A stretch of DNA of 34,730 nucleotides from positions 1 to 34,730 of the forward strand of contig JBEGVZ010000124.1 of the NCBI GenBank assembly GCA_041178085.1, given 5' to 3'. Position 1 is the first letter of the stretch. Each line of letters starts with the position of its first letter. The stretch is from Pseudomonadota bacterium (GTDB lineage: Bacteria; Bdellovibrionota_B; Oligoflexia; Oligoflexales; RGVZ01). Shown piece after piece: positions 6,001 to 12,000 of the stretch. The position numbers are program-made.

Positions 6001-9000
6001 GGAAGTTCTTCCGGATTCTTGATGGCAGACACCGAGACTTTGCGGCCATCCACGACAATCGCACCATCGGCCGCCTCTACGGTTGCACCAAAACGCCCGT
6101 GCACACTGTCGTACTTGAGCAAGTGGGCAAGGGTCTTGGTGTCGGTAAGGTCGTTGATATGGGTGATTTCAAAATCACGGTTCCCCTGGGCGGCAACAGC
6201 CCGGAACACCGTCCGCCCGATGCGGCCGAAACCATTGATGCCAACGCGGATGGTCATGTCGTCTTCCCTTCTCGAAAGTGACCATAAAGTAGCAAACAAA
6301 CCGATATCAGCAAGCAATTTCAGGCTAAAACGGCGACCTTGAAGGCTTCGCAGACTGCCGGCATCGCCGACGCCGGGACGTCCAGGTGGGTCACAGCCCG
6401 GATCCAGCCCCCGCCCGTGGTCAGGGCCAGAACCCCGCGGGCCTGAAGGGACTCCAGCACCGCCTGCACCCGCTCGGGACGGACTTGCAGGTAAACCATG
6501 TTGGTGCATGGCTCAGGAATCTTGGCCCCAAGGACCTCACCGGGGTGGCTAAGGCACAAATCCTGAAAGCAGGCAGCCAGCATACGCGCGTGGGCGTGGT
6601 CCGCCTGAAGGCGCTCCCGATGGTGTCTGAGCGCATAAAGCGCCCCTGCAGCGATGATGCCAGACTGGCGCATGGCGCCGCCCCAGCGTTTGCGCACTTT
6701 CCGGGCACGCGCGATAAAGTTCGCAGATCCGCACAGGGCCGAGCCAACCGGGGCGCCAAGCCCCTTCGAGAAGCAAACTGCCGCCGAATCAAAACCGGCG
6801 AGAAGCTCCCGCACCGGTATCCCGGTGACCGCCGAGGCATTCCAGATGCGCGCCCCGTCGCAATGCAGCCCAAGGGTCCTGCCACTGCCAGCGAGCAGCC
6901 TCTTGCCCAAAGAGACCCGCGCCCGGATACGCTCCAGGCCGGTGGCTGGAAAAACCCGCCCCCCGTGACGGTTGTGGGTGTTTTCAACGACAATCAGAGA
7001 GGTCGGCACGGAGTGCAAATTATCGTCGCGAATCAGAGCATCGGCCCGGTCCGTCCAACTTGTGAAATCGGGGCTCGGCAAGCAGTCAAATTGGACACCG
7101 GATAGCGCCGCACCGGCTCCCGCCTCGTAGATGAAAACGTGACTTTCCGCCTCAATCAGGACCGAATCACCTGGTCGCGTGTGGACATTGATCGCGAGCT
7201 GGTTGGCCATGGTCCCGCTGGGCACGAACATCGCCGCCTCGAATCCTGTGACGCTGGCGGCTTCTGCCTCAAGCTCGTTGACGGTTGGATCCTCGCCGAA
7301 CATGTCATCGCCCACCACGGCCGAGGCCATGGCAGCGCGCATCTCCGCCCCGGGACGGGTGAAGGTATCCGAGCGCAGGTCGGCAATGGGGTTGATCAAA
7401 GAATTCAGTGCCATCAAAGCAACGGGGTTTCAGTCTTGGGTTCCAGACGGAATGGAATCACAACACCCATCTTGGAACCGGAAGAAGCTTCAGAATCAGC
7501 CCCGCTACCCGAACGCTCCTTGCGCGGCTGGCGGGCAAGGTCGCTGATACGGACCGGGCGACTCAACCGGCGACGCGCAGCCGGAGTGTTCAGCCCACGA
7601 AGGTCCATGCTGGCGTCGGGGGGATTGATCAGCAGGGCCGACAAGCCAGAGCCATCAATCAGCCTGCCAGCTGCCAACCCTGCCTTGACCAGCTGGGCAT
7701 TTTTGAAGTCGATCTCCGGGAAAGCACGCAGGCGTTCAACGCCCAGTGCAGCGCGGGCACGCAGCAAAGATTGCATGGCATCTTCCAGAGCTCCGCCAAG
7801 CAAATGGCAGCGCATCTGGTGGTTGAACACCGCAGCCATGAGTTCAACCGTGTCTTCTGCAACGGCAAGGTCCTGGCGCTGCTTTTCCGAAAGCGTCGCA
7901 AGCTGAGACTCAATGTGGCGGATCAGCGGATTCAAACGCCGCGCCGCCTGACGGTAATCACCACGCAGGTAAGATGGAACGGACCAGAATGCCGCAGTAA
8001 ACGTCCGCCGGAGAATTCTTTTGCGGGTGACGCCGCGCCCGAGCACACCGATCACGCGCCTTTCTGTCATGCAAGCGCGAAACAGCAAAAATAGCGAGCG
8101 CAGAAAGGCCGTCAACTCACGCAAGCCCGTCTGGGCGAAAGCCAAAAGGGCGGCCAATGATGCAAAAATAAGTGTTGTCACGAAACCGGGAACCTCCATG
8201 CATCCATCGCGTTTATCGCGTTCGTCGCATCAAGCTGGGCGACTGATTTCCAACCTTCCGTTGTTGGGAATTTTTTCGCTTTAGTGCAACTCCTGCGGGC
8301 TTTGCAACACTTGGATGCAAAAGTTTTATAATCGACGCCTCAAATGCCCTTTCCGGAGATTATTGTTGCAGGCAAGTGGCCGGCATGATTAAAGTTCCGA
8401 CGCCCGGATCTTGACCTTGTCGGGACGGGAGCGGGCGTCGTACCCAAGTGGCTAAGGGAGCGCATTGCAAATGCGTTATTCGCCGGTTCGATTCCGGCCG
8501 ACGCCTCCATAAAACAACAAAAAACCCGCTGGATTGTCTCCAGCGGGTTTTTTGTTGGCTCAACCCCGCATCACGGGGCTATCGCTCAAGGATTCAACGC
8601 CGGCGCTTTCCGCCGCTCTTGGTGTCATGGCCCTTGGCCGGGGCCTCCCCCTTGCCGTCCAGCGGGAACCATTCCGGCTCGTCGACGTCCACAGCCTTGT
8701 TGGGGAATCCGCTGCTCACGCCGGCCTCTTCCACTGCCATGTCCCAGATTGAAGCAAGGATTGCTGAAGCAAACCCCATGCGAGGACCATAGTAATTCTT
8801 CAGGTTACGGTCATCCTGGGAGCCATCACGGTCGAAGTTTTCCAGGACACCCGCCAGCTCGCCAAAGGCGACCTCGCCCTCGTGAAAGACGAGCGTCTTG
8901 ACGGCACCCTCACCAGGGCGCCCGCCACCGCGACGGTCAAAACCGCTTCGACGGCCTTGTCCGTCGTCCACCACGTCGCCGGTCAGGCGGTCGTGCGGCA

Positions 9001-12000
9001 CTTCGTCGACCAATGTGGACTCGAAGTACTTGTGAACACCCGGGCGACCGATCGACTGGCCGTCATAATCGCTCGAAACGTGCATCGGCTGGGAGATATC
9101 ACCAACATAGTGGCCCATCACGCCGGCCATCTGGATGGTCGTCTTCCAGTCCTTCGCCTGCAGGGCCTTGACCATGCGGCGATAGATATCAGCGATGCGG
9201 AACATCGCCGAACCATTTTCGTCCAGGAATTCATGGCCTTGCTTGGTTATGATCGACGCAGCCGTAAGTCCTGCGTAGTCACCCAGCAGGTTCGACTTCT
9301 TGTATACGTCCCAATGGAAGAAGTGCGTGCCACGCTCCTTCTCGTAGGTATCCTTCCGCTTCCAGAGGCCGTCTGGAGTGTTGGAAAACTTGCCGAGGGT
9401 TTCCTGATTCTCGCGGAAGAAATTGCCCGCTGCGGAGGTCGAGAGTTCCGACGCGGCGACATTGACGATGTAATGTCCCTTGGAACCCCATGCGAAGCAC
9501 GGGCTGCTGATGGCTAGAGAGACGACTGCTAGAGATGCGGTAGCTACACTGGTCCTGACGAGACTTTGCATGATTCCCCTCATAGACAAACATTTACGGT
9601 GTTTGGTAGATACGCCGGACCAATTACCGGCTTATACATGGGTACAGGCACAAAGGCTTGTAAACATTAAATTTTTAGAACTAAATGGGTATAAACCCCC
9701 ATCCCCGGTTAGTCAAGCCCGACCTTAGCGTTGGCGCGGCTGACGTTTCGCCTCTTCCATTGCTTTCTCCATGATTCCGCCTGCTTTCGCTTTGATTCCG
9801 CGGAACAAAAAAGCCACCACGACGCCGCCAGCAAGGACGGGTCCAAGGGTTTTTGCCAGATCCACCATCACTGCGGCCCCTTCCCCGCGTGACATGATGG
9901 CCGCCACCATCAAAGCTGCAGCCAACCACTGAAACTTAAACTCCCAGAACTTCTTCATCCGAAGCCCCCCCTTCCCTTCTTGATGTCCTTATCGCAAACG
10001 CTGCAGCCAGCCCACAAAGGATTGCTGCTACAGTTGAACCAAGGATCCAAAGACGTTGCCTGCCCTCAACAATACCAGCCACAGAGAAAGCAAACCTTGA
10101 TCCAGCTTCCAGCGGACTGGACAGGTTCCAAACCCTTTCCTGGCGACTTACAAGGCCGTTTCCGCTGACCGTGAGGGCGGCATTCTTTTGAACCAGCACC
10201 TGCAATTCGGCGACTGGATAAGGGACGGCAAAATCAACCTCTGCCTGGCCCGCCTTTGACGGAAGGATAAAGCCGAAACTGAGCAGGTGTACCCCAGGCT
10301 CAACGATTTTCTTTATCGATAGCGCCCCCCCCTCACCGACCACGACTTCGTCCTGGCTGATCCCCTCCTGGGGACGAACGTCGATCGCTCCGGCCGGTAA
10401 CATCACTGGCGAAGCAAATTCACTGGCCTTGTCGCCCGGATTGTTCACGGTGAAAACGTAATGACCCCATAACTGGTCCACCCCACCCCGCAGCATGATG
10501 GCATGACGGGGACCAATTTCGACCGCAACTGCGGCTTGGGCCGAGTCTGTGAGCCCACCGAACCAGGTCGAACCAGCCATCAGCATGGCAAGAATCACAG
10601 GTGCCATCCGATTGCTTGCGATGAAGTCAAGGCGACGGGCTACGTCAAGCCAGCGGTGACGAAGATACGAACTGCGCCGCTCCCACTGGCGGGTTGAGAT
10701 TTCCCCACGCTTGTACGAAGCCTCTTCCTGGACATAACGCGACACGATCGCAGCCTTCATGGCGGCAAGGCGATCAGGATCGTCAATGGTGGCCGCTGCG
10801 GCAAGACGGCCGCCACGACCAAAGTAAAACGGCGCCAGCGTGGCGCAGACTGCGACCAGAGCGAACCCGCCCGCAACTAAAAGGATCGCAGTCATCAGGA
10901 AATCCCTCCGCGTCTGCGCGCCCTGTCCAGTTCAGTTTCCCAGTCAGACAGCAGCTCATCGAGAGGCTTGACCCCGTCCGTGCGGCGAACATCCTCGCGG
11001 TGGCGCCAGACAAAAAACCACAAGGCCAGCGGCCCAAGCAGCAGGGCGACCAAGGGGATCGCCCACGCCAGCACGTTGACGCCCGTTTTGGGTGGGACGC
11101 GCAAGATCCATGGCCCGTAACGGTCTGTAAACCAGGCAAGAATCTCATCATCGGACTTGCCGGCCTTGATCTGGTTGGTCACCTCGTCCTTGATCTGCTT
11201 CGAAAAAGGAGCATCGGACTCAAGGACACTCAGCCCCACACAAGTCGGGCAACGGAGTTCGCTGGCGACATCCTTGAAGCGGTTCTGGAAAGCCTGTTCT
11301 TCCGCAGCGAAAGCATCCATGGCAGCAAAGCCAAGAACCAGCGCACAAGCGACTCGCATTACGAAGGCAAAAACCAGACGCATCATGCCCGCCCCCCGTC
11401 TGCGACGTTTGACGGATCATCTTTGGAATCTTGCTCCCAGACACCGCCGGCGACATCGCGGCTGCGATCTCCGCGGAAACGATCCAAGGCAGCAATGAAG
11501 CCACCAAGTACCATGATGACCACACTTATAAATACCAGGCGCACGGTGGGATTGACGTGCAGCTGGAGCGTGACCGTTTCACCAGCCGCCTTGTCGAAGT
11601 CGACCATCACGGCGTAGAGGTCATGCCAAAATCCGCCGAGCACCCCGACCTCGTTAAGCAATTCAGGCTTCGTCGGGTATTTGCTCTTCGCGGGGAACAG
11701 CATCCCAACTTCACGACCGTCCCGGGAAACCGTCAAGGGTGCTTCGAACAGTTTATAGTTTTCCTGATCACGAACCTCGAACTGGCCCAAAGTGAATTCG
11801 TAGCCATAAAGCTTCGCCGATTCACCGGCGCGCAAAGTTACTTCGGTGTTAACGCCACGGTAATTACCAAGGAATCCAAGTATGGCAAGAAGGACACCGA
11901 TGTGGGCGATGAAAGCACCGAAGTAGGCTGTGTTACGCCCAAGGAAATTGCGGACTGCGGAAATCCCTGACGAGCCCCGGAGAAACGGGCGAAGCCGGTA

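Follow-up and report, generated by a model that had tools for sequence, protein, structure and literature searches.

Guanine-I-type riboswitches in front of exported nuclease-like proteins in Oligoflexales and related bacteria: a predicted translational OFF switch

What a riboswitch of the purine family might control in front of a gene for an exported enzyme is the question raised by the window, i.e., the whole stretch of 34,730 nucleotides (contig JBEGVZ010000124.1) analysed from a genome of the order Oligoflexales. The RF00167 match of the window, at 9563-9659(-), reaches 55.2 bits (E 5.6e-7, gathering 37) and a second copy at C127:8483-8579(-) reaches 51.8 bits, both being recovered at the coordinates reported in the survey's finding that preceded this analysis. 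No other copy was found in this genome with the Rfam model or with a lineage-specific model (150 of 426 candidates scored for the latter). It is likely, from sequence comparison and folding, that this guanine-I riboswitch acts at the level of translation to switch off exported nucleases, both its ligand and its direction being predicted.

Table 1. Features of the window gene, its leader and its 3' neighbour
Feature	Position	Strand	Remarks
325-aa predicted exported protein, S1/P1 nuclease - Zn-phospholipase C superfamily	8594..9571	(-)	PF02265 and fold; ATG at 9571
Signal-peptide-like residues 1-27	9491..9571	(-)	N-terminus ends PCFA, followed by WG; pLDDT low up to residue 30
Guanine-I-type purine riboswitch aptamer	9575..9643	(-)	Rfam span 9563-9659; first-shell residues parsed
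Aptamer key positions	U22=9634, U47=9612, U51=9608, C74=9585	(-)	
P1 5' strand (positions 14-21)	9635..9642	(-)	
P1 3' strand (positions 75-82)	9577..9584	(-)	Overlaps Shine-Dalgarno; 4 SD nucleotides paired in P1
Shine-Dalgarno-like GAGGGG, 4 nt 5' of ATG	9576..9581	(-)	Best anti-SD match, aptamer positions 78-83; duplex with anti-SD 8-mer, -7.4 kcal/mol
Possible sigma70-type promoter TTGACT-17-TATACC	9688..9716	(-)	Imperfect -10; failed consensus scan
Intrinsic terminator-like hairpin (19 pairs) at gene end	8515..8557	(-)	Shared with convergent tRNA-Cys
tRNA-Cys, convergent with window gene	8434-8509	(+)	

The comparison covers all 115 RF00167 matches from 82 genomes, belonging to the same phylum and to a sample of the Bdellovibrio phylum; within the order, the riboswitch is present in 57 of 95 genomes, which reproduces the earlier count. 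The residues U22, U47, U51 and C74 and the pairs A21-U75 and U20-A76 were parsed in 115/115 matches, and their columns are invariant in the 66 rows of an alignment of non-redundant aptamers, as are the L2-L3 kissing pairs G37/G38-C61/C60 (66/66); the closing pair A21-U75 occurs in 107 of 107 distinct aptamers. Paired cells represent 93.5% of this alignment versus 31-44% in slid controls, with two-sided changes at 17 of the 21 aptamer pairs and, for P1 (86.8% paired), at 5 of 7 pairs. J2/3 consists of 8 nt in all rows, and one extra base occurs 5' of C74 in 2 of the 66. According to their first shell, the aptamers are of the guanine-I type, with a ligand that is predicted. The U74 mark of adenine riboswitches is absent, C74 occurring in all 115 matches. 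The C in J3-1 had previously been taken as the mark of the guanine class: the class stands, but C74 cannot serve as its sole proof since the 2'-dG classes share it, and U51 together with the lack of insertions is decisive. The features of 2'-dG-II, namely C51, G21-C79 and a 2-nt J3/1 insertion (PMC6847200), are replaced by U51 and A21-U75; an RF03165 search of the genome, in which 150 of 767 candidates were scored, is uninformative, its sole match (20 bits) lying elsewhere. The 2'-dG-III, guanine-II, xanthine-II and 8-oxoG variants were similarly rejected, as there are no junction insertions and no U51G, and U47 is kept.

A hidden variant of specificity, responding to a nucleoside (2'-dG or guanosine) or another breakdown product as do the 2'-dG-II riboswitches before endonuclease I, seems quite unlikely. 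An atypical gene association usually marks an altered ligand (PMC9295807), P2 plus L2 measure 18-19 nt in 114/115 aptamers versus 21 in the Rfam consensus, and position 73 is other than A in 56/115 (the window aptamer has a 6-bp P2 and U73). However, U51 is kept, neither G21-C79 nor an insertion in J3/1 (2 nt) or J2/3 is found, A73C costs xpt just two-fold (PMC6847200), and in a metagenome pattern scan the same 6-bp P2 precedes IMPDH, GuaA, PurL, PRTase and permease genes, so that the short P2 and U73 were discarded as signs of a new ligand class.

Behind these guanine-I-type aptamers, 108 of the 115 loci encode nuclease-like proteins of five unrelated families, 74 of these 108 calls (HNH-like and PD-(D/E)xK-like) being motif-level assignments that pass no Pfam cut-off and reach a fold Z of 4.2 at most. 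The families comprise HNH-like (65), S1/P1-like (20), endonuclease I (10), PD-(D/E)xK-like (9) and EEP (4) proteins, and the non-nuclease genes consist of DUF3465 (6) and an EamA transporter (1). A purine synthesis or salvage gene follows the riboswitch in 0/115 loci, and the purH, purC, purD, guaA and hpt genes of the genome itself all lack the switch. The nuclease regulon, previously perceived on the best 30 loci (10 S1/P1, 14 homologues of the second gene, g02631, and 6 with neither), holds on the complete set, and the same split is recovered from the first 31 loci: 10 S1/P1-like, 15 HNH-like (14 without the second copy of this genome) and 6 other. By a crude rule, a signal-like N-terminus occurs in 108/115 downstream proteins versus 472/1361 control ORFs. 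Within the order, close homologues carry the switch in 40 of 43 cases for the HNH-like family and in 20 of 22 for the S1/P1-like family, and the metagenome scan yielded 7 nuclease-family matches among 102 called ORFs, all seven starting 11-18 nt past C74. Operons are mostly absent: of 113 complete genes, 12 are followed at 60 nt or less by another ORF, which is unrelated; a MscS gene stands behind two of the DUF3465 genes. Only a subset of secreted nucleases carries the switch, and degenerate copies were found in none of the loci examined before switch-less homologues, hpt genes and a Bacteriovorax homologue (0/24 with model R1, 0/20 with Rfam). Purine auxotrophy was rejected as the cause of the regulon, purH and purC being present in 78/95 and 80/95 genomes, respectively, and their absence not tracking the switch. 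The loci show the switch retained while the partner nuclease, as judged from sequence, has been swapped between unrelated families, at least five in number.

The window gene had been described as a riboswitch-led S1/P1 nuclease with a signal peptide. PF02265, its sole Pfam match (34.2 bits, cut-off 29.5), and the signal-like N-terminus uphold this description, but the name itself is tied with Zn-phospholipase C, the fold comparison giving Z 20.5 for S1 nuclease versus 20.2 for phospholipase C. The mature protein would begin at the Zn-binding Trp28, and W28-G29, H33, D67, H83, H154, D158, H164, H180 and E184 are invariant in the family. That the regulon reading is right and the enzyme of the window a Zn-phospholipase C, or another phosphoesterase under the same switch, appears unlikely. 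The top three Foldseek matches and all six PDB sequence matches are phospholipases C, H180-x3-E184 and QPMH are PLC-like, the base-binding Asp83 of S1 aligns with His, Gln or Glu (position 86, motif-only mapping), and PF00882 exceeds its cut-off in 6/10 family members, the window protein having no match. On the other hand, PF02265 exceeds its cut-off in 9/10 members, the W1/H6 spacing (W28, H33) and the aromatic residue after His83 are S1-like, and the same slot is occupied elsewhere by endonuclease I, EEP and, in one metagenome ORF, a canonical S1/P1 nuclease (E 4e-59). In the nucleoside site NBS1 (Phe81, Asp83, Ala-Gly, Asn154; Lys68), again by motif-only mapping, aromatic 84 and D170-G171-Q172 are kept, with the Lys one place off; the last Zn ligand is Glu184 where S1/P1 nuclease has Asp. 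NCBIfam contains no family for the protein, which is classed from its sequence in an uncharacterised bacterial subfamily; the window gene is the S1/P1-like occupant of the slot and most likely encodes a nuclease/3'-nucleotidase. Look-alike clusters occur in Acidobacteriota and Bacteroidota.

In the HNH-like family of the second gene, D110, H111, N121 and N125 are conserved in 94/94 sequences and D138/E141 in 93/94. HNH Pfam matches, all below cut-off, occur in 15 of 20 scanned proteins, NCBIfam offers no family, and the fold search gives a weak best Z of 4.2, with HNH nucleases at ranks 1, 3, 4 and 6. The PD-(D/E)xK-like proteins share E47, D82, E98-V-K100 and Q115 (7/7); their Atlas neighbours are NERD, PDDEXK_1, McrBC and Mrr (TM 0.45-0.59, under the naming bar), and a PDB sequence search returned just two weak UvrB rows for this family and no match for DUF3465.

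With respect to the direction of switching, the start codon lies 12-20 nt past C74 in 114/115 loci, leaving no room for a terminator. The overlap of the Shine-Dalgarno with P1, noted earlier and borne out in the window, amounts to at least 2 nt in 91/115 loci and at least 1 nt in 105/115, and is nil in 10/115. Enforcing the bound core raises the median cost of opening the Shine-Dalgarno from 3.5 to 7.5 kcal/mol, and 104 of 106 folded loci behave as OFF-like and 0 (0-1) as ON-like, in a test which leans to OFF because two P1 pairs are enforced. The OFF direction, at first deduced from geometry, is predicted on the additional basis of P1 covariation through the Shine-Dalgarno and of folding. An ON switch, in whose free leader the start codon would be sequestered by a hairpin formed with the P1 3' strand until the ligand releases it, is very improbable: the minimum-energy fold of the window leader does pair UAUGA (75-79) with the AUG region, and yet this hairpin, rejected as a conserved element, is not preserved across the 115 loci, 72 of which have at most the 2-3 pairs given automatically by UAU/AUG. 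In a longer fragment of the window leader, an alternative fold lies about 4 kcal/mol below the aptamer fold. Five S1/P1 loci of the same genus have only 2-3 P1 pairs; such degenerate P1 stems would suit a vestigial aptamer, inherited with the gene after regulation was lost, but the chance of this is extremely remote given the invariant pocket and kissing-loop nucleotides, stems covarying across two phylum-level groups, and a partner gene that has been replaced five times or more.

The predicted translational OFF switch would operate as follows. A promoter just upstream may produce a short leader made almost entirely of the aptamer: RNA contigs in 3 of 4 studies begin at the aptamer 5' end and extend into the ORF, a weak hint, and a loose promoter pattern occurs upstream of 42/113 loci versus 6/113 controls, the consensus scan of the window giving 0 promoter-like sites. 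Without ligand, P1 would be weak and the Shine-Dalgarno open, and the nuclease would be translated and exported, export having been shown in print for Bd3507 only. Binding of guanine or hypoxanthine would close the junction, zip P1 over the Shine-Dalgarno and block initiation. Since the switch covers the ribosome-binding site, the cells probably make these DNA/RNA-digesting enzymes only under purine shortage; nucleotides freed from prey or environmental DNA/RNA would, through salvage, lift guanine and stop translation. It is evenly balanced whether predatory and related bacteria possess a regulon dedicated to purine feedback, with a guanine riboswitch throttling the translation of interchangeable secreted nucleases during the digestion of prey or environmental DNA.

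One of the riboswitches leads the orthologue of Bdellovibrio bacteriovorus bd3507, encoding an endonuclease I family protein secreted into the bdelloplast (PMC7925074). The published bd3507 primers match exactly the ORF and the 3' end of the switch with the start codon, the latter being primer E040; the paper, devoted to transcription and localisation with no assay of the purified enzyme, does not contain the word riboswitch (PMC7925074). Only one of the three endonuclease I genes of B. bacteriovorus carries the switch. The bd3507 mRNA rises in mid-predation (PMC7925074), which counts against the OFF-feedback model, as prey purines should then be plentiful. The bd3507 mutants show an unexplained rise in extracellular DNase without matching transcript changes (PMC7925074); it would be explained if a second HNH-like nuclease, unannotated and bearing the switch, were de-repressed, a proposal which, taken jointly with the purine-feedback regulon, is equally poised between right and wrong.

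If correct, this reading would represent the redeployment of a textbook riboswitch from the control of biosynthesis to that of extracellular digestion, and would assign, by regulatory association, a nucleic-acid-scavenging function to two unnamed secreted families (HNH-like and PD-(D/E)xK-like) and to DUF3465. It might also provide a mechanism for the bd3507 mutant phenotype and for a paced breakdown of prey DNA, and furnish Bdellovibrio genetics with a native part that responds to a ligand. B. bacteriovorus offers a tractable model, as published bd3507 mutants and mCherry fusions keeping the leader make guanine control of predator nuclease output testable at once.

Compared with known enzymes, the window protein resembles S1, P1, SmNuc1 and B. 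cereus PC-PLC in its fold (Z about 20 each), trinuclear Zn ligands and N-terminal Trp after signal cleavage, but shares only 13-19% identity with S1/P1 nucleases or Zn-PLC and mixes an S1-type W1/H6 with a PLC-type His-x3-Glu. The adenine riboswitch of Vibrio vulnificus add is a purine aptamer acting on translation initiation, which has U74 and turns ON, whereas C74 and a Shine-Dalgarno inside P1 predict OFF here. Bd3507 is a close parallel, its orthologue carrying the same riboswitch. Guanine-I riboswitches of the B. subtilis xpt type (RF00167) share the three-way junction, the L2-L3 kissing pairs and U22/U47/U51/C74, and are OFF when guanine is plentiful (PMC9295807), the logic predicted here; purine synthesis, salvage or uptake genes are typical of them, not defining, in contrast to 0/115 synthesis or salvage genes, and their leader is longer, whereas the present ones are predicted to act on translation and have a 6-bp P2 in phyla outside Firmicutes. 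Riboswitch control of nuclease genes is not wholly new, so that the new regulon logic initially proposed stands as a nuclease regulon and not as an unprecedented one: 2'-dG-II (RF03165) is likewise a purine-family aptamer upstream of DNA-acting genes, with endonuclease I, ComEC and phospholipase D among the genes it precedes (PMC8872408). It is known from about a dozen examples in Bacteroidetes and metagenomes with mixed genes, in contrast to the single, coherent nuclease regulon that the present 82 genomes show.

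Guanine-type riboswitches matching RF00167 are followed by a gene for a nuclease-like protein in 108 of 115 loci, distributed over 82 genomes from Bdellovibrionota_B and the Bdellovibrio phylum, and by a purine synthesis or salvage gene in none of the 115. In Bdellovibrionota_B, where every match was fetched (79 in 58 of 131 genomes), the first open reading frames (ORFs), 43 of them classed with Pfam and the remainder via BLAST clustering, consist of 43 HNH-like lipoproteins, 20 S1/P1-like, 7 PD-(D/E)xK-like and 6 DUF3465-like proteins, 2 endonucleases I and 1 EEP protein. An even sample of 151 genomes of the Bdellovibrio phylum yielded 36 matches in 24 genomes, preceding 22 HNH-like proteins, 8 endonucleases I, 3 EEP proteins, 2 PD-(D/E)xK-like proteins and 1 EamA-family transporter. 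Bdellovibrio bacteriovorus Bd5, reached via a homologue search, possesses four copies: one ahead of an endonuclease I, one ahead of a PD-(D/E)xK-like protein and two ahead of HNH-like proteins. The survey's finding of a nuclease association among the best 30 loci (10 S1/P1-like, 14 resembling the HNH-like lipoprotein g02631, 6 neither) was reproduced, as was the occurrence of the riboswitch in 57 of 95 genomes, and the association holds across all matches. Its strength resides in five unrelated families occupying one slot, the counts from related genomes being non-independent. Pfam cut-offs are exceeded by endonuclease I (3 scanned), EEP (4 scanned) and 9 of the 10 S1/P1-like proteins scanned; the predicted HNH-like and PD-(D/E)xK-like labels (74 loci) stand on invariant motifs, sub-threshold Pfam matches and weak fold matches. 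A crude signal-peptide rule is passed by 108 of the 115 switch ORFs versus 472 of the 1361 long ORFs of the window's genome (G000), and switched proteins other than Bd3507 of B. bacteriovorus would presumably be exported as well.

Some of these families deserve separate mention. The DUF3465-like exported proteins follow six switches (L060, L064, L072-L075, genus g20) and score 24 bits against PF11948, slightly below cut-off; to judge by their slot, they may act in the scavenging of nucleic acids, and in two loci a MscS channel gene overlaps the end of their gene. The PD-(D/E)xK-like motif family, presumably secreted and unnamed (L003, L006, L017, L020, L031, L044, L079, L085, L116), belongs to an Atlas cluster of 135, mainly from Bdellovibrionota; to our knowledge, it is unusual for proteins with this fold to be exported. 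The EamA locus (L112, G156:C1:403714-403811) is the sole one with a distant start (54 nt) and a Shine-Dalgarno (SD) outside P1, and its transporter may export purines, controlled by a different logic.

With respect to class, U22, U47, U51 and C74 (xpt numbering) and the pairs A21-U75 and U20-A76 occur in 115 of 115 aptamers (the parser required these motifs, and none failed), and the same columns are invariant in all 66 rows of an independent alignment. The C51, G21-C79 and 2-nt insertion of the 2'-dG-II class are all absent, as are the class marks of 2'-dG-III, guanine-II, xanthine-II and 8-oxoG switches. A 6-bp P2 and a frequent U73 are deviations that do not mark a class, because a short P2 also precedes ordinary purine genes in metagenome loci and A73C carries a two-fold penalty in xpt (PMC6847200, available text). 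Judged by its sequence, the aptamer is a guanine-I one.

The start codon lies 12-20 nt past C74 in 114 of the 115 loci, so that a terminator has no room. In all but one of the 115 loci, the best match to the anti-SD sequence has its first nucleotide within positions 76-81; its overlap with P1 is 2 nt or more in 91 loci and nil in 10. P1 covariation continues across this stretch (two-sided changes occur in 5 of 7 pairs and pairing reaches 86.8%, versus 31-44% overall in slid controls), in agreement with the earlier placement of the SD within the P1 3' strand. When the bound core is enforced in folding, opening the SD costs a median of 7.5 instead of 3.5 kcal/mol, with 104 of 106 distinct aptamers OFF-like and none ON-like (103 and 1 with longer flanks), a test that leans toward OFF because two P1 pairs are enforced. 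Ligand binding would turn translation OFF, with feedback exerted through salvage. The free window leader can fold into a start-codon hairpin; its conservation was looked for across the loci and not found. In five loci of the window's genus with an S1/P1-like gene (L067, L070, L071, L077, L078), P1 is down to 2-3 contiguous pairs and the pocket is invariant, which may reflect set-point tuning or decay. At the endonuclease I locus L089, RNA-seq contigs from three of four studies start at 1515, 1520 and 1528, next to the aptamer 5' end at 1517, the depth immediately upstream is about 100-fold lower in two studies, and the fourth study's contig spans everything; these starts weakly suggest that the transcript has the aptamer as its 5' leader.

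The degenerate pattern used on metagenomes gave at least 117 loci, 102 of those listed having a called ORF. All seven nuclease-family genes among these 102, one of them a canonical S1/P1 nuclease (E 4e-59), start 11-18 nt past C74; three more ORFs at 10-13 nt, two without family and one FAD oxidoreductase, are probably miscalled starts, and the remaining 92 start 24-283 nt from C74. Amidohydrolases, IMPDH, GuaA, PurL, PRTases, permeases and FAD oxidoreductases make up most of the 35 representatives outside the nuclease families that were scanned. By N-terminal likeness, a FAD-dependent oxidoreductase (PF21688-like) follows guanine-type aptamers in at least 25 of the 102 listed ORFs (L173-L289).

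Read in the reverse direction, among close homologues in the order, the switch precedes 40 of 43 HNH-like ones (E<1e-50) and 20 of 22 S1/P1-like ones (E<1e-100), and is absent from the five exceptions and from 15 more distant paralogue loci tested. A second HNH-like paralogue of G000 (C89:4740-5195) is also devoid of it. Since only one of three endonuclease I genes of B. bacteriovorus carries the switch, the regulon represents a subset of secreted nucleases. Purine auxotrophy as its cause was ruled out because, of 95 genomes, 78 have purH and 80 have purC; purH, purC, purD, guaA and hpt of G000 all lie at switch-free places. Three genomes of the same genus (G091, G092, G093; 89-90% complete) show no purH or purC match and keep both switches, and a divergent purC (E 1e-19 to 1e-25), perhaps re-acquired, lies inside the pur cluster of G000, G089, G090 and G094.

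Primer E040, taken from PMC7925074 and having the bd3507 start codon at its end, exactly matches the switch 3' end in three loci (L088, L089, L091); the two qPCR primers for bd3507 match the ORF of L089. The available text of that paper shows that Bd3507 is secreted into the bdelloplast, calls it a predicted endonuclease, and contains no occurrence of 'riboswitch'. It reports higher extracellular DNase in bd3507 and double mutants with no clearly induced transcript, for which its authors suggest a rise in translation or some further nuclease that they did not identify. The genomes that match the primer exactly also possess another copy of the switch, in front of a secreted HNH-like protein (L113-L115) apparently outside the six nucleases listed there, as judged by length or family, and de-repression of this protein would account for the DNase rise. 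The bd3507 mRNA peak at mid-predation, reported in the same text, counts against a simple starvation logic; a throttle pacing digestion fits equally well, with the same mechanism.

Features of the window locus and of the second G000 switch
Feature	Position	Strand	Remark
RF00167 match	9563-9659	-	55.2 bits (gathering 37)
U22, U47, U51, C74 (xpt numbering)	9634, 9612, 9608, 9585	-	
ATG of 325-aa ORF	9571	-	14 nt downstream of C74
Terminator-like hairpin	8557-8515	-	3' of 325-aa ORF, then convergent tRNA-Cys
TTGACT-17-TATACC, putative promoter			downstream of stop codon of upstream 77-aa ORF
77-aa hydrophobic ORF	9725-9958	-	immediately upstream of putative promoter; no Pfam family
Two further regions	9936-10895; 7414-8199		likewise without family
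Coproporphyrinogen oxidase, then ccmF-ccmH	10895-14237	-	heme/cytochrome c maturation cluster; no relation to switch
Second RF00167 match	C127:8483-8579	-	51.8 bits

A search of G000 with a model derived from aptamers of this lineage (150 of 426 candidates scored) yielded no third copy, and the putative promoter does not pass a consensus promoter scan. The 325-aa ORF had been described as an S1/P1 nuclease with a signal peptide; PF02265 scores above cut-off and a signal-like segment ends just before an invariant Trp-Gly, but the predicted fold (pLDDT 86) matches S1 nuclease (Z 20.5, rmsd 2.9 over 224 aligned residues) and phospholipase C (Z 20.2, rmsd 2.8 over 217) equally well, the latter being ranked first by Foldseek and by PDB sequence search. 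The enzyme resembles S1 nuclease in Trp1/His6 and the aromatic residue after His83, and phospholipase C in His180-x3-Glu184, and differs from S1 nuclease in the missing Asp at the base-binding position. A nuclease or 3'-nucleotidase is the favoured prediction from context.

According to the available text of PMC9295807, guanine-I switches commonly target purine synthesis, salvage or uptake. A guanine-riboswitch regulon of secreted nucleases was not found in the literature searched, which included few subscription papers. The linkage of riboswitches to nucleases has a precedent, since 2'-dG-II switches lie upstream of endonuclease I, ComEC and phospholipase D (PMC8872408, available text), and the proposed novelty of the regulon logic is narrowed by this precedent but retained for the coherent nuclease regulon. 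Comparative analysis gives good support to the reality of this regulon. It would combine a known riboswitch class with a set of target genes that is new and coherent and with a platform acting on translation.
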